Positions 4,723 to 64,000 are shown, numbered from the stretch's first letter. The stretch: 64,000 bases of DNA from Minisyncoccota bacterium (GCA_041661795.1 JBAZTS010000003.1:3939-67938); one strand, 5' to 3'. Numbers and translations are program-made. The notes: generated by a model not told the origin, from the sequence alone.

Positions 4723-5561
4723 TATTTATTTAGAGTATAAAAATTTTTAAACAGACAAGCCACTAAAATTGGCCCCGTTCCTCCCGGAGTGGGAGTAAAA
4801 AAAGAAAGAAAATCATCGCCATTTTCATTTAAAGATTCAATATCAAAATCTCCTCCCATTTTACCCGTTTTTTCATTTATTCCGTATCCAAAGTCAATAA
4901 CCGCTGATCCTTTTTTGAGCATACTAGTTTTAACCAATCCTGCTTTTCCTGTTCCCAGGACAACTAGATCGGCGTTTTTTAAAGAATCTAAATTACATCC
5001 TTCTGACATGGAGCAAACTTCAGGAACTTCTTCTAAAAACCAATTAGTGACCGGGCGACCAACTAAAAACCCCTGCCCTAAAACCGCTACCTCTCTAAAA
5101 GAATTTCTTTTTAAGTTTAAACTTTTTAACACCTCATCTATAACCGCAACCGTAGGAGGTAAAACAATAGATCTGTTGTGATAAAAAGCCCCAACAGCTC
5201 TTTCTGACATCGCCTCTATGTCTTTTTGAGAAGGAATAACATTGATCGCATAGAAGGGGTTTAGAGTATTAGGAAGAGGAAGTTGTAAAATAGCTCCCCC
5301 GCATTGGCTGGACAAAACCACCTGTCTTATTTTTTCCCTTAAATCATCGTTGGAAATATTTTCATCGTATTGATACAAACGAAAATCCACCCCAAGCTCT
5401 TTGGCTATTTTTTCTTTTTGAGCGATAAAACTGACGGAAGCCGGATCTTTTCCAACCAAAAACACCGCCAAAAATTTTTTGGGTACTGTTTTTGTTTTAA
5501 GCTCGTCTAAAATATTTTTAGCTATTTGTTTTCCATCTATTTTAATCATATTTTTTGACAA
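4722..5561 (-). CDS. folD: Bifunctional methylene-THF dehydrogenase/cyclohydrolase FolD
   Basis: LVGKDPAS, ILQLPLP, DLVVLGTGKAGLV and TPTPGGTGPI motifs. Confidence 0.85.
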   Translation of the reverse strand: MSKNMIKIDGKQIAKNILDELKTKTVPKKFLAVFLVGKDPASVSFIAQKEKIAKELGVDFRLYQYDENISNDDLREKIRQVVLSSQCGGAILQLPLPNTLNPFYAINVIPSQKDIEAMSERAVGAFYHNRSIVLPPTVAVIDEVLKSLNLKRNSFREVAVLGQGFLVGRPVTNWFLEEVPEVCSMSEGCNLDSLKNADLVVLGTGKAGLVKTSMLKKGSAVIDFGYGINEKTGKMGGDFDIESLNENGDDFLSFFTPTPGGTGPILVACLFKNFYTLNK

Positions 5562-6792
5562 CCAAAATATTGTGTAATTCTTTAGCTAATTTCTTCATAT
5601 CTTTTTCTTTCATTCCTCTTGAGGTAACTGCATAAGTTCCGATTCGTATGGCTGATGGCTTAAAGGGAGAGGTGTCTCCAAAAATTGTGTTGCGGTTGGC
5701 TAAAATTCCATTTTTTTCCAGCATTTTTTCCGCCTCAAACCCGTTTATACCTAAACCAGATACATCTATCAGGAACATGTGACAATCAGTTCCTCCACCA
5801 ACTATATCCCAGCCCAAGGCTGGTCCGCCTCGGGCGGAAAACCCTAATTTTTTCATTTCATCACAAAGAGTTTTAGCGTTTTTTACAACTTGCTTATAGT
5901 AATTTTTGTTTTTCGTCGTAAGCAAAAGTCCATGGGCAATGGCGGCAATTGTGTTGTTATGAGGTCCGCCTTGGAGACCGGGGAATATCGCTTTATCAAC
6001 TAATATTGGTAAATCAATATTTTCTTTTTTTATATAAATTAAAGCTGCTCTCGGACCAAAAAGTGATTTATGAGTTGTAGTCATAACAAAATCAGAATAT
6101 TTAAAAGGAGACGGGTAAAATCCGGCTGAAATTAATCCGGCATAGTGAGAAATATCAGCCAGATGATAAGCCCCTACTTTTTTGGCAATTTCTCCTATCT
6201 TTTTGAAGTTTATTTTTTTAGGATAGGCCGAGGCCCCAGAGACAATAATTTTGGGCTTATGTTTTTTTGCTAATTTTTCTAATTCTTTATAATCAATGTC
6301 ATAATTTTTATCAACGCCGTAATGAACAACGTTAAAAAGTTTTCCAGTAAAACTAACTTTGGAACCATGAGAAAGGTGTCCTCCGGCGGTCAAATCCATA
6401 GAAAGGATTGTTTCGCCTGGTTTTAGAACAGAAAGATAAATAGCCAAGTTAGCAATAGCTCCCGAATAGGCCTGGACATTCACATGCCATTTGTTTTTAT
6501 CTAATTTAAATACCTTTAAGGCCCTATCTTTAGCCAACTCTTCTATTTTGTCATAGTAAACATTCCCAGGATAATATCTTTTTCCGGAATATCCTTCCGA
6601 GTATTTATTGGTCAATTCCGACCCAAGCAACTCCAAAACACCTTGGGGAGCCAAATTTTCTGAAGCAATTAAATCAATGTCTTCTTTTTGTCTTTTTACT
6701 TCCTTGTCAGCTAGGTCAAAAAGAGTTTTGTCTGTCTTTTTTAACTTTTTAAGCATTAAACAATAATAATCCAAAAAGACCGCTTTGAGCAA
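5542..6792 (-). CDS. glyA: Serine hydroxymethyltransferase
   Basis: PLP-lysine region TTTHKSLFGPRAAL, conserved N-terminal SENLAP. Adjacent to folD (one-carbon unit pair). Confidence 0.9.
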   Translation of the reverse strand: MLKAVFLDYYCLMLKKLKKTDKTLFDLADKEVKRQKEDIDLIASENLAPQGVLELLGSELTNKYSEGYSGKRYYPGNVYYDKIEELAKDRALKVFKLDKNKWHVNVQAYSGAIANLAIYLSVLKPGETILSMDLTAGGHLSHGSKVSFTGKLFNVVHYGVDKNYDIDYKELEKLAKKHKPKIIVSGASAYPKKINFKKIGEIAKKVGAYHLADISHYAGLISAGFYPSPFKYSDFVMTTTHKSLFGPRAALIYIKKENIDLPILVDKAIFPGLQGGPHNNTIAAIAHGLLLTTKNKNYYKQVVKNAKTLCDEMKKLGFSARGGPALGWDIVGGGTDCHMFLIDVSGLGINGFEAEKMLEKNGILANRNTIFGDTSPFKPSAIRIGTYAVTSRGMKEKDMKKLAKELHNILVVKKYD

Positions 6793-6824: not shown

Positions 6825-8024
6825 TTAATTAAAATATTCCAGCTGGACATTATCTACCCATAAAGTTCCTTCCTCTCCGTCGTTTCCAAATAAATACAAA
6901 GAAGCGTCATGATTGTCCACTTCCCAATCGGAAGTAACTGTAAATTCATGGGTAATCTTTTCCCAGTCCTTTTTATTTGGAATGGTTTTACTAACAATGG
7001 CCGTGTCAAAAACATAGGCGCCTTGAGAGTTGGACCAGTGATAAATTCCAAATCTGGCGGTTTTGTTTTTATTATCAACTTTAGCCATAAATTTTACCCT
7101 AACAGCCGTGCCCGGCTTCCAACTATGAGTTAGTCCAAGATTTTGCCATGTTTGATAAATTTCTTGGAGACGATGAGGATATCCGTATTGAGTATTTTTG
7201 TCTATAAATTCTATACAAGGAGAATTTCCTATGCCACAAGGGTCAAAAACATGCCCATGATATCCAACCGAAGGACTAGGAACAGAGGGATTGTATCCGA
7301 AAGAAAATCCTCTACTTGGCTTGTGATCACCGTTCAAATTAACATCCCATCCAGGATTATATGATTCCGAAATGTGATTGATGTTTGTATTATCTACTAT
7401 GTTTCCGGAAATATCATCTTTAAAATCGTCGCTTTTTTCTTCATAGGAATAATCATCGTCTCCATCATCGGTTGATGTTTTATCTTTATCTCCGCCTAGG
7501 GTATATTCGTTACTCTCAAGGTTATTGGCAGCAACATAGAAATTGTTACTGTCGTCTACCGAATAAAGATAGTAGCTCTCGGAAGCGACGTCATTAACCG
7601 GATCGGTTGGTAAAATATTTATGGATATTGAGCCGGCCAATTTGGTGAAATCAACAGGCACCCATCCGGTTCCATCAACATTAAAAATATCTTCCTGAGA
7701 TATACAACGGTAAGACCATCCTAATGGAAGCTCGGGAAGATTTAGATTGTCGCAAGTAGGCGAAGAATCTGGAATTGAAGGATAAACGGTGTTGGGACTT
7801 CCCATAAGAACCGCCTGAGGACTAAATTTGGCTTTAGCAAGGTTAATTTCCAAGTTTTTAACATCCGATATTCTTTTAACATCCCGAGATTCGGCTAAAA
7901 ATTCGGCTGGATTGATAACAAATATTGCCGCTCCTCCCAAAAAAACCAATATTCCCATCACCACCAAAAGCTCTACAAGAGTTGTTGATTTCTTTTCTTT
8001 ATCTTCCTTGTTAGAATCTTTCAT
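6825..8024 (-). CDS. Large type IV pilin-like / pseudopilin protein
   Basis: N-terminal class-III-like signal: basic stretch, then TLVELLVVMGILVFL with Glu at +5. An acidic low-complexity stretch lies mid-protein and a large C-terminal domain follows. The -1 residue is Ser rather than Gly, so processing is uncertain. Confidence 0.45.
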   Translation of the reverse strand: MKDSNKEDKEKKSTTLVELLVVMGILVFLGGAAIFVINPAEFLAESRDVKRISDVKNLEINLAKAKFSPQAVLMGSPNTVYPSIPDSSPTCDNLNLPELPLGWSYRCISQEDIFNVDGTGWVPVDFTKLAGSISINILPTDPVNDVASESYYLYSVDDSNNFYVAANNLESNEYTLGGDKDKTSTDDGDDDYSYEEKSDDFKDDISGNIVDNTNINHISESYNPGWDVNLNGDHKPSRGFSFGYNPSVPSPSVGYHGHVFDPCGIGNSPCIEFIDKNTQYGYPHRLQEIYQTWQNLGLTHSWKPGTAVRVKFMAKVDNKNKTARFGIYHWSNSQGAYVFDTAIVSKTIPNKKDWEKITHEFTVTSDWEVDNHDASLYLFGNDGEEGTLWVDNVQLEYFN

Positions 8025-55661: not shown

Positions 55662-56495
55662 ATGAGACAAAAATTAGGACAGCATTTTTTAAAGAATAAA
55701 GAAGTTTTGGAAAACATTGCCGACTCTCTTGAATTAAAAAAAGGCGACGTTGTTATAGAAATAGGTCCGGGGCACGGGGAATTAACGCAATATTTGCTTA
55801 ATGCTGGCGTTACTATTATTGCCATAGAGAAAGATGAGAGTATGGTGGAATATTTATGTAATAAATTCGAAGCACGAAGCACAAAACTCGAAACAAGCAC
55901 AAAATCCAAAATTCAAAACAATGAGTTAAATTTAATTAATGGGGACGCCCTCAAAATACTCCCTGTTTTGAATACGGTATACGACATACGGCATACGAAA
56001 TACAAAATTGTTGGCAATATTCCCTACTACATAACTGGGCATCTGTTAAGAATTATTAGCGAGTTAAAAAACAAACCCAAATTAACTGTTTTACTTATAC
56101 AAAAAGAAGTGGCGCAAAGAATTTGCGCAAAATCTCCACAAATGAATTTATTATCTGCTAGTGTGCAATTTTGGGCGGAACCCAAAATAATACAAAATGT
56201 GACTAGGGGAAATTTTAATCCTCCTCCAGACGTTGATTCGGCTATTGTTTTGTTAAAAACAAAATCACTGATTAACACGGATAAAAATAACACACGGATT
56301 GATACAGATATATACTATGGTTTTATAAGAAAAATTTTTAAGCAACCCAGAAAAACGGTTTTGAATAATTTAATTAGTGGTGGATATAAGAAAGATGAGG
56401 TTTTGGGGTGGTTTAAAAATAACAAAATAAAGGAGAATTGCCGACCGCAGGATTTTGATGTGAATATGCTGATAAAAATGGCTTTAGAGCTTTAA
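55662..56495 (+). CDS. ksgA: 16S rRNA (adenine1518/1519-N6)-dimethyltransferase KsgA/RsmA with a repeat-derived in-frame insertion
   Basis: GQHFL, SAM site EIGPGHGELT, NGDAL and VGNIPY motifs. Insertion KFEARSTKLETSTKSKIQNNE is encoded by the AAATTCGAAGCACGAAGCAC repeat at 55863-55882. Confidence 0.8.
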   Translation: MRQKLGQHFLKNKEVLENIADSLELKKGDVVIEIGPGHGELTQYLLNAGVTIIAIEKDESMVEYLCNKFEARSTKLETSTKSKIQNNELNLINGDALKILPVLNTVYDIRHTKYKIVGNIPYYITGHLLRIISELKNKPKLTVLLIQKEVAQRICAKSPQMNLLSASVQFWAEPKIIQNVTRGNFNPPPDVDSAIVLLKTKSLINTDKNNTRIDTDIYYGFIRKIFKQPRKTVLNNLISGGYKKDEVLGWFKNNKIKENCRPQDFDVNMLIKMALEL

Positions 56496-56576
56496 TTTTG
56501 AATATAGTGTTGTATAATAAACAAGCGATGCCGAAGGGGAATTACCAGTCCCTCAATTTGCTTTAGAAAACACAAA

Positions 56577-57407
56577 ATGCAAACTTTAAACTTTAAAAAT
56601 CCGTTTGTTATTTTTGGAATTATTGTGATTATCTTTGTTGGTTATTGGATACTCGGAGGATTAACTCCAGATAAAATTATAAATCTTTCTAAAGATAGTG
56701 CTGACGTAGTTAAAAGTAATAATTCTCAACAATTGGGAGATTTGAGCTGGGTAGAAAATCCAAACGATGTCGCAAAAGATTTGTCTCAGACGTCGCTGGA
56801 AAATTTAACCAGCAAACTATCAGAAAACATATCTTCGGAATTTCTGTCTCAAGTAGATTTTTCTCAAGCATCATCTTCTCCTAAGAACTTAATAGATCAA
56901 TTAAACGGAGCAGATTTGAATGATCCTAAAACACTTTCTTTTTTAAAAAATAACCCACTTGGGTTTTTATATAGCATACCCGACAAGAGTATTAAAATTT
57001 CTTCTGATAACTCATCTCAAAAAGCAGTTGAATACATTTTTAGTTATACAAGCATCATGTCTGAAGTTGCTGGTCAAAAATCACAAGACCCGCAAGACCT
57101 TCTGGAAGAAATTACCTCTGTTATTGAAAGCCAGGACCAAGGAGAAATGTCTCAAATGGCGTTTAATTTAAATAAGGGATTTGATAGAATAATACAATTA
57201 GAAGTTCCTTCGGGTTTAGTTGAATTACATAAACAAAACTTAATGATATTCAAAAATTCAGCGATTGTTTTTGGGGCGTTGGCTTATAAGGATAACGACC
57301 CGTTAAAGGCGTATCTTGCGGCCATGAATGGTTCTGACCTTATTATAAAAGAAACCGACAAAGCCGATTTATTATTTAAGGAGGCATCTAAAAAATATTC
57401 CTTATAA
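56577..57407 (+). CDS. Hypothetical membrane-anchored protein
   Basis: N-terminal TM (FVIFGIIVIIFVGYWILG) and a hydrophilic Ser/Asp-rich domain. Upstream of T4SS-like genes. Confidence 0.45.
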   Translation: MQTLNFKNPFVIFGIIVIIFVGYWILGGLTPDKIINLSKDSADVVKSNNSQQLGDLSWVENPNDVAKDLSQTSLENLTSKLSENISSEFLSQVDFSQASSSPKNLIDQLNGADLNDPKTLSFLKNNPLGFLYSIPDKSIKISSDNSSQKAVEYIFSYTSIMSEVAGQKSQDPQDLLEEITSVIESQDQGEMSQMAFNLNKGFDRIIQLEVPSGLVELHKQNLMIFKNSAIVFGALAYKDNDPLKAYLAAMNGSDLIIKETDKADLLFKEASKKYSL

Positions 57408-57413
57408 AAATTT

Positions 57414-59003
57414 ATGGTAAGCGTTTTTAAAAAAATATTGATAGTGGTAGTGCTTTTTTCTTTTGTTTTAAATGCCTCTGGGGTTGCTTCGTTTTTTACG
57501 GTCAAAAAAGCGCAAGCGGCTTGGCCTGTCAGCGAACTGCTCTCTCTGCCGACTTTTATTCAGATAATGAAAGACCTTGCGCAATGGATTAAAACTGAAT
57601 TGCTAAAAGCCCTAAGAGACGCCGTTGTTAAATCTATTATAGCCAAAATACAAAATGATATAATCCAACAAGTAACTGGTGGTAATGGAGGGGATAGCAG
57701 TTTTGTCTCTGATTGGGGCTCTTACCTAAAGGATGATATTATTAATTCTACTTTTAGTGAGTTTAACGATATTTTAGCCAATGATACTGGAATTGATTTG
57801 TGCGTTCCTTTTGCTCAGCAGTTCTTGTCGTTGCGGTTAAATGCTTTAACTGCCAGTTATGGAGTTGGTCAGGACTATCTTGGTCTTCCGGTTAGATGTA
57901 CTTTTGACCAATTTAAATACAATTTGGAATATACTTATGATTTTATAACAAAAGGAGGATGGGCTTCTTATGACGCCCTCTTCTCTCCAGATATTAATCC
58001 CTATTGGATATCTTGGCAGGTTGAAGATAAATTCGCTCAACGTGTTGCTGAACAAAAAGATGCAAAAAAATCTGAGGCCGAAAGCTCGGGAGGATTTTTA
58101 GGAACAAAAGAGTGTAAGATGTATGGTCCTAAAACAGAACAACAAATAAGAGATGAGTGTACCGATGACGTTATAAATGGAACCGCACAAGGAGAAGCCG
58201 GAGAAGCTTTTAAAAGTTGTTTGGGGTATCTTACTCAACAAAACTGTAAAGAGTGGGGGATTCTTACTCCGGGACAAGCAGTTTCGGAAGCTGTAACAAA
58301 AGCGATTGGTTCTGATTTTGAATATGCAGAAAACGTTCAAAGTGCCATATCGGCTATAATAAATGTTTTAGTGTCAAAAGCTCTAAGTGAAGGACTTCAA
58401 AGTGCTTCAGGAGGAACAACCGTTAATAGAGAACCCGGAGATTTAGATGGTACAGGATTTGAGGATTATGAAGGCGAAACATACAGGCAAGACCTGGAAG
58501 ATGCTAACAGGGATTATGATGACATAATTTATTATATTACTAACGACCTAGGGCCGATTGTTTCTACGGTTTTAGCTTTTGCGCACGACATGGCCGGAGA
58601 CGGAACGGATTTGGAAAGTTGTCCGAATAGTAGAATAAGTGTTGATGATGGAAGCGGAACAAAAAAAATATATACCGCGGCAGAAATTATTGATTTGCTA
58701 AATGGATTTGATTTGAATAATTCCAGCTCAGCTACTTCGCGAGCCCTGACTCAAGCCAGAGCCAATCAAATTGAAGTTTCGAATTTATTAGACCAAGACA
58801 ATCCGAGTAGTAATGACGTTAATAAGGTGGTTAATAAGTTGTCTAATTTTGTCAGGACATATCAGCCATTTTACATTGACGTTCAGCTGGTTAATAGTGG
58901 TGGTGACGGAGAATTAGTAACTCTGGTTTGGAATATTTACAACGCTCTAAGGGCGTTTAACAACGAAGACGGTAATGATAAGAATAATTTTGTCTGTAGA
59001 TAA
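57414..59003 (+). CDS. Hypothetical secreted/membrane-anchored protein (Cys-containing, acidic)
   Basis: N-terminal signal/anchor (ILIVVVLFSFVLNASGVASF) and 529 aa with several Cys pairs. Co-directional with the VirB6-like gene, with a 3-bp gap. Confidence 0.45.
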   Translation: MVSVFKKILIVVVLFSFVLNASGVASFFTVKKAQAAWPVSELLSLPTFIQIMKDLAQWIKTELLKALRDAVVKSIIAKIQNDIIQQVTGGNGGDSSFVSDWGSYLKDDIINSTFSEFNDILANDTGIDLCVPFAQQFLSLRLNALTASYGVGQDYLGLPVRCTFDQFKYNLEYTYDFITKGGWASYDALFSPDINPYWISWQVEDKFAQRVAEQKDAKKSEAESSGGFLGTKECKMYGPKTEQQIRDECTDDVINGTAQGEAGEAFKSCLGYLTQQNCKEWGILTPGQAVSEAVTKAIGSDFEYAENVQSAISAIINVLVSKALSEGLQSASGGTTVNREPGDLDGTGFEDYEGETYRQDLEDANRDYDDIIYYITNDLGPIVSTVLAFAHDMAGDGTDLESCPNSRISVDDGSGTKKIYTAAEIIDLLNGFDLNNSSSATSRALTQARANQIEVSNLLDQDNPSSNDVNKVVNKLSNFVRTYQPFYIDVQLVNSGGDGELVTLVWNIYNALRAFNNEDGNDKNNFVCR

Positions 59004-59006
59004 AAA

Positions 59007-61355
59007 ATGAATTATTTTAGAGGAAATAAAAAGACTTTAATAAAATCATTATTGATGTTGGTTTTAGTTGTAACTCTGTTTGGGTTTTTTAATCAAGAAG
59101 CTCAAGCGGGTATTTTAAGTAGTTTTATAGATTTTTCGGGGTCTGTTTTGATAAAAATTATATTGTTTGTTTTTGGTTTAATTCAATGGTTGGTAGGAGT
59201 TGTATTCATTAAATTTGGGGCCATGCTTGTCAACTTTGCAATGTACATTAATAAAGGATTGTTAACAGATTTAAACGATACTCACTTTGTCATAATTGGA
59301 TGGAAAGTTTTTAGAGATTTGGCAAATTTAGGGTTTACTTTGGGAATAATAATAATTGCCGTTTCCATTATTCTTAGATTTAAAAGTTATGGCTCTCAAA
59401 AAGTTCTTACAAATCTTATAGTGGCGGCTCTTTTAATAAATTTTAGCTTAGTTATTGCCGGTTCAATAATAAAAACATCAGATGTTTTTTCGAACTTCTT
59501 CTTAAAATATATTGATGCTTCTGGAACTAGTAACTGGTCAGCTAGAATTACCGGTATGTTTAGAATGCAGGGAGTTGTTATTTCTAAAGATCCGTCAGCG
59601 CGACCAGTTTGCGATGCTGAAAATGATGAAAAAATTAAAGAAGCTTGTGAGCAACAAAAGAAAGATGGGACAATAACAGATGTTGATGCCTGTATTAAAA
59701 ATGTTACGGATAGTATGTGTAAATTTGACTCTGTTATACCAGATAATACGGATTTAGCAAACATCAAAGAAGATAGCGCGCTTTCGGCTAGTTTTTATAC
59801 TTTGGCCGGTCTTTTAATATCTATAGTGGTAGGTGTTTTTATCGGATTAACGCTTTTGGCGTTAGCTTTTATGCTTCTTTTAAGATATTTTAATCTCGCT
59901 TTTCTTTTAATGGTATCGCCTCTTGTTTGGGTTCTTTGGGTATTTCCTTATACCAAACAATATTGGAAAAAATGGTGGGATAGTTTTATAAAATGGGTTT
60001 TATTTGCTCCGATAACGCTGTTCTTTGTATATTTAACATTAATTTTCCTTTCTAAAAGTAGCGGTGGTTTTGGAGGGCAGGCGAATGAAGTGGCTACTGG
60101 TTCTGGAACAAGTATAGCCGGTATTGGTTTTGCAGATATGATGATTCCCTTTATGGCTGGGGCATTGCTTTTAGCTGGATTAAAAATCTCTCAAACGATG
60201 GGATTTGCTGGAGCCGGATTTGTTTTGAAGCAGTCCTCAAAATTGCAAAATTGGGCAAAAACAAAAGCTCGAAGAGGAGCGGCAAGAGCTGGAAGAAGGG
60301 CTTTAGGAGAGAGGACCAGAAATGTAGCAAATAAAATTGGTTCTAGTAAATGGGCTAATAGATTGACTTTAGGAGGAGCAAGTAAGCTCGCTGAAGTAAC
60401 AACCAAAGGCAGGGCTACCTTAGAAAAAAAATCTCAAGAATTTATTGATGAAAAAGTTAAACATTATGAGACCATAAAAGATTCCAAACAATTAGCCGCT
60501 CTTCTCCCAACAATGAACAAAGAAGAAAGAATGGCGGCGTTAGAGGTTTTGTCTAAAAGAGGAGACATGAAAGAAACTCAAGGATTACTTGGAATGGATC
60601 AAGTAATAGAATCGGTTGAAACCGCTAATACAATTGGTCGTGGTAAGTCGGCGTCTGATACTCAGAAATCTTTTGGAATGAGTCTTAATATGATGAAAGC
60701 TATGAAAAGTAGCGATGGAAAGCACGAGGGAAAAACATATGAGGAACACGCTAAGGAATTTTACGGAAATTTTTCATCTGATGATTGGAAAAAATCGGGG
60801 GCTGCAATAGGAAATCATATTTTTAAACCAGTGGACCCAACGACTAAAGAGGTGGTAGATATGCCAGGAATGACAAAAGAACAATCAAATAAGTTTAGGG
60901 AGCAGTATGTGGCTGGTTTGACCGGAGGTTTTGGAGAAGGGATATCTGCTATCGCCCCCAAACTCAAAGGAGAAAGCACGAAAAAAATGCTTGAGGATGT
61001 TGTAGCATCTGTTGCTGGAGATGCGGAAGTAGTAAGTATCAAAGATGCTATAGAAAAAGCGAGTAAAGATATGGATGGTGATAAAGTTATTGAACTTGTG
61101 CGTCAAAGGGATGAGGAGGGAGTGAAGGAAATAAAAATAACTGCCAGTCGTGATGATATATTAAGAGCTATAAGAGAAGGTGATTTGGATAAAGCTGTTA
61201 ATCTTATGAAAAATTCTAAAAATCCCAAACTAATAACTATCGCCTCTAAGATTAACAAGAGTATGGGAGCTGCTATACTGTCTGCTAGTGGAGAAGAAGG
61301 CAAATCAGAAGAGAAGAAACCAGAGGAGAAGAAACCAGAGGAACCTAAGAAATAA
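59007..61355 (+). CDS. VirB6/TrbL-like polytopic T4SS membrane protein with Lys/Glu-rich C-terminal extension
   Basis: Signal/TM, about 8 TM helices with a Cys-containing extracytoplasmic loop, then an about 380-aa hydrophilic tail. Synteny VirB6-like, then VirB3-like, then VirB4 as in Gram-positive conjugation loci. Confidence 0.45.
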   Translation: MNYFRGNKKTLIKSLLMLVLVVTLFGFFNQEAQAGILSSFIDFSGSVLIKIILFVFGLIQWLVGVVFIKFGAMLVNFAMYINKGLLTDLNDTHFVIIGWKVFRDLANLGFTLGIIIIAVSIILRFKSYGSQKVLTNLIVAALLINFSLVIAGSIIKTSDVFSNFFLKYIDASGTSNWSARITGMFRMQGVVISKDPSARPVCDAENDEKIKEACEQQKKDGTITDVDACIKNVTDSMCKFDSVIPDNTDLANIKEDSALSASFYTLAGLLISIVVGVFIGLTLLALAFMLLLRYFNLAFLLMVSPLVWVLWVFPYTKQYWKKWWDSFIKWVLFAPITLFFVYLTLIFLSKSSGGFGGQANEVATGSGTSIAGIGFADMMIPFMAGALLLAGLKISQTMGFAGAGFVLKQSSKLQNWAKTKARRGAARAGRRALGERTRNVANKIGSSKWANRLTLGGASKLAEVTTKGRATLEKKSQEFIDEKVKHYETIKDSKQLAALLPTMNKEERMAALEVLSKRGDMKETQGLLGMDQVIESVETANTIGRGKSASDTQKSFGMSLNMMKAMKSSDGKHEGKTYEEHAKEFYGNFSSDDWKKSGAAIGNHIFKPVDPTTKEVVDMPGMTKEQSNKFREQYVAGLTGGFGEGISAIAPKLKGESTKKMLEDVVASVAGDAEVVSIKDAIEKASKDMDGDKVIELVRQRDEEGVKEIKITASRDDILRAIREGDLDKAVNLMKNSKNPKLITIASKINKSMGAAILSASGEEGKSEEKKPEEKKPEEPKK

Positions 61356-61356
61356 T

Positions 61357-62379
61357 ATGTTGAAGGTTGATAATAAAACGATAAATAAAAGGTGGGATGA
61401 AGCTCCGGACGTTTTAAGAGAGGCGGTATTTTCTCCTGTTTGCAATGATGCCTTAGAAAATGTTTGTGAAGAGTTTCATTTAGTTGAAGAAAAAAGAGTT
61501 ATTTTAAGACGATTAGGATTTTTTGTTTTTTTTGGCTTTATTCATCTTCAGGACTTGTATAAAGAAATAAAAGATAGCTTAGGAATAGATGGACGGCTAG
61601 CTCTGGAAATTTATCAAGAGTTAGATAAAAAAGTATTTTCTCCCTTCCACAAAGAAATAGAGGATAATTATTTGAAATTTAAAATAGGAGTAGTAAGACC
61701 GGAAGATATTGACGAGGCCCCTAAAGCTCAAATTCAAAGAGTAGTTCTTAAAGAACAGGAGCCGAGCGTGGTAGATTTGAAACCGGTGGAAATAATAAAG
61801 GACAGAGGAGAGAGAACAGAGAATAGTGAAGAGAGGGTAGGGACGCAAGAGACGGAACCACCAAGCCCATTAGAGGAGAAAGAGAAGCCCCCTGTTGTTA
61901 TAAAGCCGACCCAGGAAATTAATGAACAGGGTAAAGAGGAAAGGGAAAAAGGTAAAGTAGAAGAAAGAATTATTGTCAAAAAACCAATTGAGTCCATTCC
62001 ACTGACCCCTAAACCTTTACCCCTCACCCTTAGTGATGTTGCTGACTTGGGGCCGGTGATTATTCATAAAAGAGAGGAACCTTCATCTGTTTCTCAAACA
62101 AAAGCTACCAGCGGGTTTAAAATAAATACGTTTGGAGGATTTTTCGGTTCTTTTAAATCGTCCATACCAAGACAACAAGACGCGGTTTCCAAAGCCCAAG
62201 TTCAGACGCCGAGCAATTTTAAAAAAGAAGAAATGAGCGAAGCCGGAAAAGTGCCGGTGGTGGTAAAAAAATACGAAGAACAACCAAAAACAATACACTA
62301 TAGTGGATTTAAAACCGATCTTGGAAAGAAATCAGAAGAAAAAGATAATAGCGAAAAGATAGATTTAAATAAATTATAA
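61357..62379 (+). CDS. Hypothetical protein (Glu/Lys/Pro-rich C-terminus)
   Basis: Start moved to the MLKVDNKT Met immediately after the upstream stop. No recognisable domain. Confidence 0.4.
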   Translation: MLKVDNKTINKRWDEAPDVLREAVFSPVCNDALENVCEEFHLVEEKRVILRRLGFFVFFGFIHLQDLYKEIKDSLGIDGRLALEIYQELDKKVFSPFHKEIEDNYLKFKIGVVRPEDIDEAPKAQIQRVVLKEQEPSVVDLKPVEIIKDRGERTENSEERVGTQETEPPSPLEEKEKPPVVIKPTQEINEQGKEEREKGKVEERIIVKKPIESIPLTPKPLPLTLSDVADLGPVIIHKREEPSSVSQTKATSGFKINTFGGFFGSFKSSIPRQQDAVSKAQVQTPSNFKKEEMSEAGKVPVVVKKYEEQPKTIHYSGFKTDLGKKSEEKDNSEKIDLNKL

Positions 62380-62389
62380 CTATTTATTT

Positions 62390-62497
62390 AAGCACGAAGC
62401 ACTAAATCCGAAATTCGAAACAATATTTAAATTCTAATGTTAAAAATTTTTAAACTCAAACACCGTTTCGGATTTTGATATTAGAATTTCGAATTTT
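62390..62497. repeat. Intergenic repeat block: AAGCACGAAGCAC + AAATCCGAAATTCGAAA, then inverted TTTCGGATTTTGATATTAGAATTTCGAATTT
   Basis: Member of a family also found at 55863-55882, 63068-63106 and (inverted) 63501-63532. Confidence 0.7.
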
Positions 62498-62504
62498 ACT
62501 AATT

Positions 62505-63056
62505 ATGGCTCAATTTGAAGTACCACAATTTATAGATATGGAGCCAAAAATTGTTGGCCCGTTAACGTTAAAACAGTTTGCTTTTATAGCGGCTCCTTTT
62601 TTGATTTCATTCTTTCTATTTTTTGTATTAAACAGATTTGTCTGGTTTATTATGGCTTTTATTTTGGCGGTTTTTGCCATTTTATTTGCCTTTGTAAAAG
62701 TTAGCGGACGGCCTTTTTGGAAAATCTCTCTTTACGCTTTAACGTTTTTCTGGCAACCAAAACTTCTTTTATGGAAGCGGGCTGTTATACAAGAAAGAAT
62801 AGAAATTCCTGCTCCGGTTGCCGTCAAAGCTGTGGCCGAAAAAAGAAGCGCCCTAAAATCAGTTTCATTGGGAGTATCAGGAAAGATTGCGGGAGTGTCA
62901 AAGCTTTGGCAGGATTTAACCACAACCAAAAATCCGATTCCAAAAAGAGAAAAATCTGTTCCTAAAAAAACAATCTCGGATATAAAAGAACAATACATGG
63001 TTTTTAAGAAGATGAGTGGCGAGAGAGAAGTAGCTAAACGAATAGATTACAGGTAG
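62505..63056 (+). CDS. PrgI/VirB3-like small T4SS membrane protein
   Basis: N-terminus FEVPQFIDMEPKIVGPLTLKQFAFIAAPFLISFFLFFVL, then a second TM: VirB3/PrgI-like topology. Start moved to the MAQFEV Met. Confidence 0.45.
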   Translation: MAQFEVPQFIDMEPKIVGPLTLKQFAFIAAPFLISFFLFFVLNRFVWFIMAFILAVFAILFAFVKVSGRPFWKISLYALTFFWQPKLLLWKRAVIQERIEIPAPVAVKAVAEKRSALKSVSLGVSGKIAGVSKLWQDLTTTKNPIPKREKSVPKKTISDIKEQYMVFKKMSGEREVAKRIDYR

Positions 63057-63067
63057 TCTATTCGTTT

Positions 63068-63106
63068 AAATTCGAAGCACGAAGCACGAAATCTGAAACA
63101 AATCAC
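63068..63106. repeat. Repeat AAATTCGAAGCACGAAGCACGAAATCTGAAACAAATCAC
   Basis: Shares a 20-mer with the ksgA copy at 55863-55882. Confidence 0.7.
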
Positions 63107-63107
63107 A

Positions 63108-63473
63108 ATGACAAAAATCCAAAATAATAAGCAATATGATTTAGAAGAGAGAACCTATGAGTTTGCCAAGAACGTTAGGGTATTTATTAAGAAAATCAGA
63201 AGAACAATATCAAACATTGAAGATGGAAAACAAGTCATAAGATCGTCAGGTTCTATGGGAGCTAATTATATAGAAGCCAACGAAGCATTAAGTAAGAAAG
63301 ATTTTATTATGAGAATTAAAATTTCCAGGAAAGAATCTAAAGAAAGTGTTTATTGGCTGACCTTGATAGATGTTGAGGGTGATAAAGATTTAGAAAAAGA
63401 AAGAGAAATTTTAGTAAATGAGGCACAAGAATTGATGTTAATTTTTAGTTCTATTATGAGGAAATCAGTTTAG
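63108..63473 (+). CDS. Four-helix-bundle protein (family often encoded in rRNA intervening sequences / accessory loci)
   Basis: YDLEERTYEFAKNVRVFIKK...GANYIEANEALSKKDFIMRIKISRKESKESVYWLTLI pattern. Confidence 0.55.
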   Translation: MTKIQNNKQYDLEERTYEFAKNVRVFIKKIRRTISNIEDGKQVIRSSGSMGANYIEANEALSKKDFIMRIKISRKESKESVYWLTLIDVEGDKDLEKEREILVNEAQELMLIFSSIMRKSV

Positions 63474-63500
63474 TTATTTTTTATTTATAATTTAGATATT

Positions 63501-63532
63501 ATTTCGAATTTCGATATTCGAATTTCGTGCTT
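63501..63532. repeat. Inverted copy of the TTCGAAA / AAGCACGAA repeat family (ATTTCGAATTTCGATATTCGAATTTCGTGCTT)
   Basis: Immediately upstream of a TATAAT (63542-63547) and the VirB4 start. Confidence 0.65.
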
Positions 63533-63553
63533 AGATTATGGTATAATCTATTT

Positions 63554-64000
63554 ATGAGTGATAAGGTTGTTGAAAAAATTATTTCTCCTCCAAATTCTAC
63601 TCAGAGATTTGTTGATGTAGAGGAGATAAAAAATGGAGTGGTTGTTTTAAAAGGAGGCGCTTTACGAGCCGTAATTATGGTTTCAGGGGTAAATTTTGAA
63701 CTTAAATCCGAAGATGAACAAGATATTATCACATCAACCTACCAAGATTTTTTAAATTCTCTGGATTTTTCTCTCCAAATAGTCATCCATTCAAGAAAGC
63801 TTAATATAGAAAATTACCTCAAAAAGATGGAGGAGATAAGAAATAAAGAATCAAGCGAACTTTTAAGAAATCAGATAGACGAATATGTGTCTTTTATAAG
63901 AAGTTTTGTTAAAGAGAACGAGATTATGACTAAAAACTTTTTTGTCGTAGTTCCTTATGAGGCGGCCGGAGCTGGGGAAATAAAAAAGGGATTCTTTGGA
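63554..64000 (+). CDS. VirB4/TrbE/CagE-like T4SS ATPase, N-terminal domain (3'-partial, runs off the window)
   Basis: Reading by eye, MSDKVVEKIISPPNSTQRFVDVEEIKNGVVVLKGGALRAVIMVSGVNFELKSEDEQDIITSTYQDFLNSLDFSLQIVIHSRKLNIENYLKKM resembles conjugative VirB4/PrgJ-type N-terminal domains (not checked against any alignment). No stop before the window end. Confidence 0.5.
   Translation, partial: MSDKVVEKIISPPNSTQRFVDVEEIKNGVVVLKGGALRAVIMVSGVNFELKSEDEQDIITSTYQDFLNSLDFSLQIVIHSRKLNIENYLKKMEEIRNKESSELLRNQIDEYVSFIRSFVKENEIMTKNFFVVVPYEAAGAGEIKKGFFG

Follow-up and report, generated by a model that had tools for sequence, protein, structure and literature searches.

A probable mobile palindromic element of the rRNA intervening-sequence type in ksgA and a type IV secretion locus of a Minisyncoccota bacterium

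Repeat copies and genes of the locus

The window, a stretch of 64,000 nt from a Minisyncoccota bacterium (GCA_041661795.1, JBAZTS010000003.1:3939-67938) with a G+C content of 36%, carries the rsmA/ksgA gene followed by genes of a type IV secretion system (T4SS). Three copies of a palindromic element lie among these genes. In the element, a variable loop separates an A-rich left arm (AAATTCGAAGCACGAAGCACGAAATCCGAAAC...) from a T-rich right arm. Its full copy, C-D, consists of the A-rich left arm, a 121-aa PF05635 gene that starts in this arm, and the T-rich right arm. Copy B has no open reading frame (ORF), and copy A is a lone left arm. The features are listed below; the TrbL-like and TraC-like labels were taken from precomputed Pfam matches on the identical genes of L123, a locus of the same organism that extends beyond the window end.

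55662-56495, plus strand: rsmA/ksgA, 16S rRNA dimethyladenosine transferase, host gene of copy A
55863-55920, plus strand: copy A, lone left arm in the ksgA frame (20-mer, arm profile)
56577-62379: four T4SS-linked ORFs, one of them TrbL-like
62386-62497, plus strand: copy B, complete ORF-less palindrome (left arm ~62386-62447, loop, right arm ~62465-62497)
62505-63056: gene of a PrgI-family protein
63068-63129, plus strand: copy C-D, left arm (20-mer; aligns with the left arms of the ORF-bearing loci L025 and L098)
63108-63473, plus strand: PF05635 cargo gene, 121 aa (Pfam, TIGR02436, PDB 2RLD)
63485-63536, plus strand: copy C-D, T-rich right arm (inverted repeat I1, direct repeat D11, arm profile)
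63539-63547, plus strand: TGGTATAAT, extended -10-like motif outside the element, 6 nt before the virB4-N start codon (63554)
from 63554: virB4-N, TraC-like N-terminal part of VirB4

The 20-mer AAATTCGAAGCACGAAGCAC occurs exactly at 55863-55882 and 63068-63087 (0.04 matches expected by chance from shuffles), and no further site was found in the window even with up to three mismatches. The 13-mer AAGCACGAAGCAC is present at 55870, 62390 and 63075; the expectation is 0.03, and three copies were reached in none of 100 shuffles. The likeness far exceeds the 20-mer, as the 57-nt stretches from 55862, 62389 and 63067 are mutually 67-75% alike, with copy A 75% identical to copy C. Positions 62386-62437 and 63485-63536 are 79% complementary.

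The arms are arrays of 7-nt units. Tandem Repeats Finder detected this periodicity at 55868-82, 55900-18, 63073-90 and 63501-27, with CGAAGCA, CAAAATC and ATTTCGA as the units in the window. The left arm of the full copy reads AAATTCG, AAGCACG (twice), AAATCCG, AAACAAA, TTCAAAT and GACCAAA in this order, and the right arm ends in ...TTGTTTCGnATTTCGATATTCGnATTTCGGATTT. Consensus arms were obtained by aligning 35 copies (copy B of the window and 34 elements from other genomes); read from this consensus, neither arm contains a stop codon in two of the three frames.

Arm profiles built from 34 copies of other genomes matched the 64-kb window at four places only: 55863-55917 (copy A, E=7.6e-10), 62390-62447 (copy B, plus the right arm up to 62497), 63068-63126 (copy C, E=2.9e-11) and 63485-63527 (copy D). 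Exact-word counts over the whole window agree. The original prediction, made from the sequence of this stretch, had placed the 20-mer at 55863 and 63068, the 13-mer also at 62390, and TTCG/CGAA heptads around the T4SS genes, and these positions were confirmed. It had also described copies bracketing the PrgI-like, four-helix-bundle and VirB4 genes. The sites are real, but they are not equivalent units: B is a complete small palindrome, while C and D belong together as the left and right arm of a single element.

Copies B and C-D are bounded by complementary termini that form a stem-loop; the one-armed copy A is not. Copy B, in the spacer between a 340-aa ORF and prgI, contains the repeat families D1, D11 and I1 of the repeat search and folds as a hairpin (z=-3.2 and -2.9 against shuffles). 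In C-D, AAGCACGAAAT at 63082 pairs with ATTTCGTGCTT at 63522, and the fold closes 63082-63092 with 63522-63532. The ATG of the cargo gene (63108) and its first codons (MTKIQN) fall within the left arm. No Rfam family reached the gathering score, or even a permissive E-value, with the element; only plant miRNA-hairpin models matched, below threshold.

The host protein of copy A is KsgA (Pfam RrnaAD, E=1.2e-43), and an identical protein is named RsmA in a metagenome-assembled genome (MAG) of Candidatus Paceibacterota. Copy A is read in frame as KFEARSTKLETSTKSKIQN, approximately residues 68-87, where the protein has 9-14 more residues than the solved homologues. The AlphaFold2 model has a mean pLDDT (predicted local distance difference test) of 89.8, with low confidence only in the inserted loop and one other loop. 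Residues 71-90 (pLDDT ~70) lie between the helix 59-69 and the strand 89-93, and the fold around the inserted loop is predicted to be intact. No family-type right arm was found 3' of copy A. It was presumably lost or never present, and the ksgA mRNA would therefore be without a family-type hairpin.

The loop is long in about half of the orthologs examined from the Candidate Phyla Radiation (CPR) and short in the rest. Long and short loops are interspersed on a crude neighbour-joining tree, which suggests repeated gain or loss. The L119/L125 ortholog carries homologous arm DNA at the same site (AAATTCGAAGCCCGAAGCGCAGAATCCGAAACAAT..., profile E=4.7e-07), and more degenerate A-rich heptad DNA ending in CAAAAC stands there in the ksgA genes of L120, L121 and L122. 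The prediction that the repeat had been taken up in frame by a housekeeping gene is borne out.

Other parts of ksgA are repetitive as well. The next loop, just before GNIPYY, contains ATACGAC in 3.6 copies (55971-56003), and 7-nt repeats occupy the same loop in L119 (CTCACAA x4), L120 (CTACAAn) and L122 (TTCAAAA x4). This period in a coding loop suggests arm-derived DNA or slippage there too. A 27-nt stretch is duplicated in tandem at 56254-56310 (2.1 copies, 76% matches); the aligned orthologs differ in length in this region, and the model has its second low-confidence stretch here (residues 201-210, pLDDT 58). Furthermore, the last unit of the ksgA arm (TTCAAAACAA, 55911-55920) can pair with CTGTTTTGAA 44 nt further 3' (55964-55973), across the conserved GDALK (z=-2.9). 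GTTTTGAA is also the beginning of right arms. This pairing is probably a coincidence, since these bases are codons for P-V-L-N.

The element family in other genomes

A scan of species-representative genomes (596 Gb) found at least 118 exact 20-mer loci in 83 assemblies, where about one is expected by chance according to our own calculation. Among the matches listed, the locus labels include many CPR/Patescibacteria lineages, Aminicenantes, Desulfobacterota, Planctomycetota (with a Gemmataceae isolate), Nitrospirota, Omnitrophota, Armatimonadota, Chlamydiae, Bacteroidetes, Chloroflexi, Gammaproteobacteria (with a Wenzhouxiangella isolate) and two archaea. One of the two archaea-labelled contigs (L074) is genuinely archaeal, because the element adjoins the diphthine synthase gene dph5; the other (L009) is not diagnostic of archaeal origin.

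Conservation goes on 3' of the 20-mer (...GAAATCCGAAACAAATTCAAATGACCAAAATTCAAAAC) and is followed by the variable loop and the T-rich arm (...GTTTTGnnCATTTGAATTTGTTTCGGATTTCGATATTCGGATTTCGGATTT). In ten family loci the hairpin spans the element from end to end, its first base pairing with its last (z between -3.6 and -7.3). The distance between the arms is bimodal: 101 pairs are at most 142 nt apart and ORF-less, and six pairs are 341-368 nt apart, the class to which C-D belongs with 355 nt. One of these six, L123, duplicates the window's own copy. A PF05635 ORF is present in four of the five independent long copies (the window, L025, L098 and L105), and the fifth, L008, has no recognisable ORF. 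Most copies no longer have the gene and are MITE-like hairpins of 100-200 nt (MITE, miniature inverted-repeat transposable element).

The cargo protein of the window matches PF05635 (23S_rRNA_IVP) with 40.9 bits (cutoff 33.8), TIGR02436 with 58.9 bits (cutoff 24) and PDB 2RLD with E=4.4e-10. All 8000 scored candidate homologs have E<=1e-10. Several phyla are represented among the best 120 of the 8000, which are 69-79% identical to it and, with few exceptions, 120-122 aa long; homologs of 70-79% identity were found in bins named Patescibacteria, Nitrospirae, Aminicenantia and Pseudomonadota. The host proteins diverge more, with best non-self relatives at 56% for KsgA and 75% for PrgI, so that the cargo is conserved across phyla far above them. 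The protein is 72% identical to that of a Berkelbacteria copy with identical arms, versus 65% and 57% to those of the syntenic copies in L128 and L126, whose arms are of a CTAA-type variant.

PF05635 is the only gene found between family arms, in four independent copies and the duplicate locus L123. The linkage of arm and gene is general, because mis-called N-terminal extensions of PF05635 homologs read the arm as peptide (e.g., NSKHEIRNSKQIQMTKI). PADLOC, in which a defence role was looked for, gave no match for the protein.

Family members reside in rRNA genes, spacers and reading frames. Three of the loci lie within 23S rRNA genes (L053, L097 and L092, the last with two copies in one gene). 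In this CPR gene (L092:4400-8000), the hairpin copies are at 5056-5243 and 6577-6707; sub-threshold group I intron matches were also seen in it, at 6928-7155 and 7587-7709. Whole or partial elements among the 118 listed loci are also found in frame, within or between Pfam domains. The host proteins are TsaD and a class-V aminotransferase (in both, the domain match is split in two), TGT, RNase HII, UvrC (between the UVR and RNase H domains), a DUF2298 protein, the adenylation domain of a nonribosomal peptide synthetase and an MBOAT protein. IscS is among these in-frame hosts. Members of the family have repeatedly come to lie in frame in conserved protein genes that are unrelated to one another.

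A single Aminicenantes MAG accounts for 16 of the listed loci, and copies of the same genome share 91-99% identity. Whole elements that are nearly identical (88-99%) are confined to single genomes or to close MAGs. The elements are therefore amplified within genomes and have lineage-specific loops, and only the arms and the cargo gene are kept across phyla. In the Aminicenantes MAG WVZO01 (L010, L079, L084, L090, L095, L115), a second small hairpin, AGGGCGACGTCAAAGTCGCCCT, always precedes the element, and in some copies a partial complement, AACTTTGACGAGACCCTG, follows it. The element may be nested in, or target, another palindrome there.

Members of this CPR clade share the ksgA-T4SS gene order, and relatives differ at exactly the junctions that hold copies B and C-D. 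Between prgI and virB4-N, a PF05635 cassette is present in the window, L126 and L128/129, while the junction is empty in L124 (the closest relative, PrgI 75% identical), L125 and L130, with no remnants seen. Upstream of prgI, the window has its ORF-less copy and L124 has a PF05635-bearing one; right-arm remnants are left in L125 and L126, and the site is empty in L127, L128, L130 and L131. These empty and filled sites come from relatives that are too divergent for base-by-base alignment. A motif like TGGTATAAT stands directly before the virB4-N start codon both in empty (L124, L125) and in occupied (L126, L128) junctions. This extended -10-like TGnTATAAT ends 5-8 nt before the start codon in the window (63539-63556), L124 (6838-6856), L125 (9570-9590), L126 and L128. 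Its closeness to the start suggests a leaderless transcript, judged from the sequence.

Interpretation and rival explanations

The repeats probably represent a mobile palindromic element that is spread horizontally and is of the type known as rRNA intervening sequences (IVSs); we put the probability of this reading at roughly 0.78. The element of the window is considered the same kind of object as an IVS, located outside rRNA, because family members sit in 23S rRNA genes and because the published descriptions of IVSs match.

IVSs were described around 1990 in rRNA genes, where they take the place of a helix tip and are cut out of the transcript without religation. They are sporadically distributed stem-loops with terminal inverted repeats, some with an S23p (PF05635) ORF, that RNase III excises; according to a paper of 2016, it was still unclear where they come from, how they move and what S23p/PF05635 does (PMC4990558). 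PF05635 ORFs have been reported in insertions of CPR 16S and 23S rRNA genes (PMC11270868) and, wedged in, inside cas operons (PMC3936711). Like the rRNA IVSs with an S23p ORF of Leptospira, Coxiella burnetii and Brucella, the present family has complementary termini, an optional PF05635 ORF of ~120 aa and a sporadic distribution that suggests horizontal transfer, and its members in L092, L053 and L097 lie inside 23S rRNA. The window itself contains no rRNA gene and, unlike IVSs, its copies are located in operon spacers and in a protein-coding frame. Compared by description and not by arm sequence, the family also differs from IVSs (PMC4990558, PMC11270868) in its heptad arms conserved across phyla and in its large ORF-less class.

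The closest precedent for the ksgA copy, by functional analogy, would be the Rickettsia palindromic elements (RPEs), small selfish palindromes that reside in frame in unrelated housekeeping genes and are apparently compatible with the protein fold (PMC10969869). RPEs occur only in Rickettsia, have no gene inside and are not known from rRNA, whereas the present family spans phyla and has a gene-bearing form, and its ksgA copy is one-armed. Correia/NEMIS and ERIC elements are likewise inverted-repeat elements of 100-200 nt that are co-transcribed with their neighbours, as is presumed here; Correia stems, formed by terminal inverted repeats (TIRs), are cut by RNase III, and ERIC stems modulate mRNA decay (PMC10969869). 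Their occurrence is limited to one genus or family, and their TIRs and target duplications are defined; in the present family no target-site duplication was found, the arms consist of 7-nt units and the spread is across phyla.

With REP/BIME sequences and their IS200-like RAYT proteins, the family shares abundant intergenic imperfect palindromes and a dedicated associated protein family. It differs in that the arm consensus has no GTAG-type motif and that the protein which goes with it, a four-helix bundle, has no known catalytic site. Neither an HUH nor a transposase domain was found in the Pfam matches of the called neighbouring genes. As expected of MITEs, which are under about 300 nt long, the ORF-less elements are small and non-coding, with inverted arms and many copies per genome. 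Derivation from an autonomous insertion sequence that encodes a transposase between the same TIRs was considered and rejected, PF05635 being the only gene between the arms.

The Avd superfamily is reported to form a pentameric barrel of four-helix bundles (PMC4990558, PMC10053308). The cargo protein belongs to the same superfamily as Avd of diversity-generating retroelements (DGRs), which suggests, by analogy, nucleic-acid binding. Unlike Avd in DGRs, the PF05635 gene is solitary and placed between inverted arms. A DGR was rejected, as no reverse transcriptase and no pair of template and variable repeats were found among the called genes of ~18 kb round the cassette, which are T4SS components, rsmA and a GxxExxY gene.

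A possible mechanism can be outlined. Insertion would be into DNA, with a preference for places that can accommodate a hairpin or loop, such as the tips of rRNA helices, operon spacers and protein surface loops. The elements would be co-transcribed with their hosts, and complete copies would form long imperfect double-stranded RNA stems that RNase III could cut, by analogy to rRNA IVSs and Correia elements, for which such cleavage has been demonstrated by experiment. In coding regions, selection would keep only copies that preserve the frame and lie in surface loops; in ksgA, the A-rich arm alone would remain, translated as a hydrophilic surface loop. More speculatively, and again by analogy to its homolog Avd, which binds nucleic acids and reverse transcriptase, PF05635 might bind the arms and promote spread or retention.

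Several results weigh against a mobile IVS-type element. No transposase, nuclease or reverse transcriptase is associated with it, and no catalytic activity of PF05635 is known. Neither a target-site duplication nor sharp ends were detected: six aligned copies of one genome share no direct repeat at their borders, where the number of 7-nt units varies and blurs the limits of the element. Different phyla have no near-identical whole element in common, and the conservation of the arms may therefore reflect constraint and not recent transfer. Residence in Archaea was checked for one contig (L074), and some taxonomic labels of MAGs may be wrong. The 20-mer has no match in IMG/VR, and the C-D cassette has none among the plasmids of PLSDB or the phages of INPHARED, so that no vector was identified. 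As to structure, the RNA of the whole C-D copy is no more stable than shuffles (z=-0.17) and the fold of copy B exceeds them only modestly (z about -3). RNAalifold, applied to a MAFFT alignment of 35 copies, did not recover the long stem and gave no covariation support, because the length and register of the arms vary. A comparison of own-arm with other-arm duplex energies, in which the own partner was best in 9 of 77 cases, was confounded by loop length and G+C and was discarded.

The original prediction had called the repeat MITE-like or regulatory. Its MITE-like character is borne out by the inverted arms, the ORF-less class, the many copies per genome and the presence or absence at orthologous sites, but a regulatory signal of the T4SS is not. 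All intergenic copies do lie directly 5' of T4SS gene starts, in gene orientation, and hairpins could terminate or process transcripts. It is nevertheless very unlikely that the repeats are promoters, operators or terminators that co-regulate the T4SS genes and mark the boundaries of the module, since orthologous T4SS loci lack copies or carry them at other junctions, and identical arms lie in rRNA genes, ORFs and unrelated operons of many phyla. Elsewhere, the orientation relative to neighbouring genes is unbiased (13 same, 7 opposite, 7 convergent and 7 divergent in a crude ORF-based test). The promoter activity proposed for the intergenic copies was assessed by simple consensus scans, which found no promoter- or terminator-like site in the repeats and fewer promoter-like matches than in shuffles; the conserved -10-like TGGTATAAT lies outside the element and is present in relatives without it. 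A mobile origin followed by domestication here, with B and C-D as sites of RNase III processing or of stabilisation through which prgI and virB4 would be expressed independently of the genes upstream of them, is unlikely. The long imperfect stems form, the gene downstream of each has its own start, processing by RNase III is documented for IVSs and for Correia elements in mRNAs (PMC4990558, PMC10969869), and some form of the element is kept upstream of prgI in four of the examined relatives. However, several relatives have no copy at these junctions, copy B is decayed (z about -3), and the slow decay of neutral insertions explains the persistence equally well.

For the ksgA segment, a local microsatellite-like expansion of 7-nt units in a tolerant loop, merely resembling an arm, also has to be weighed. 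KsgA orthologs do have differing heptad arrays here and in the next loop (CTCACAA x4, TTCAAAA x4, CTACAAn, ATACGAC), and the loop length is patchy across the tree. Yet the segment contains the exact 20-mer, its 57 nt are 75% identical to copy C, and it matches the arm profile with E=7.6e-10; the L119/L125 ortholog has a clearly homologous arm at the same site (AAATTCGAAGCCCGAAGCGCAGAATCCGAAACAAT...), and the family is inserted in frame in at least eight other proteins. Such slippage is accordingly judged distinctly unlikely. Chance resemblance between low-complexity AT-rich sequences, to which simple units and 36% G+C might lend themselves, is negligible given shuffle expectations of 0.03-0.04 and at least 118 exact 20-mer loci against an estimate of about one.

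IVSs with an S23p ORF, MITEs and in-frame palindromic elements are all known already. In mainly open literature, where an earlier description is possible, we found no account of one sequence-defined family that unites IVS, MITE-like and in-frame forms, nor of arm conservation at the level of a 20-mer with a cargo 70-79% identical across phyla and into Archaea. Exact-string literature searches for the arm sequences returned nothing relevant, and keyword searches led only to the papers on IVSs, CPR insertions, cas neighbourhoods and DGRs cited above.

If the IVS-type reading is right, an element of this kind with searchable arms exists far beyond rRNA genes, in gene-bearing and gene-less forms. 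It would multiply within genomes, pass from phylum to phylum and, in at least one case that was checked, from one domain to another, and remodel surface loops of essential proteins. An old descriptive puzzle would become testable, namely whether PF05635 binds the arms and what cuts or copies them. The insertions also matter for annotation, as they inflate and split gene calls in CPR and other MAGs, with N-terminal extensions of the NSKHEARN... type and Pfam matches split in two.

A broader view is possible but rather doubtful: the PF05635-hairpin elements may form a distinct cross-domain mobile class that unites rRNA IVSs, MITE-like hairpins and RPE-like in-frame insertions, with the heptad arms as the sequence-specific substrate of a transposase-free mobility. 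Such mobility might need an Avd-like four-helix bundle together with a polymerase, reverse transcriptase or repair pathway of the host. If true, this would account for the conservation of the arms at the 20-mer level and for the protein identity of 70-79% across phyla.

Minor features of the T4SS operon

VirB4 is encoded by two ORFs in L123, L124 and L125, a TraC-like N part of 222-233 aa and an ATPase part of 583-584 aa. Between the two VirB4 ORFs, at L123:10711-11100 (~250 nt past the window end; window position 64000 corresponds to L123 10463), lies a 129-aa gene of the GxxExxY / PD-(D/E)XK_3 type (TIGR04256, 104 bits; PF13366). It is flanked by a 17-nt inverted repeat (TACTAATAAACTAATAA / TTATTAGTAAATTAGTA) and is not present at this junction in L124 and L125. 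With its inverted ends, it is a second cassette of a small gene in this operon.

Within the window, a 15-nt tandem repeat at 61302-61342 (AAACCAGAGGAGAAG, 2.7 copies) encodes the KPEEK-rich C-terminal tail of the TrbL-like protein.

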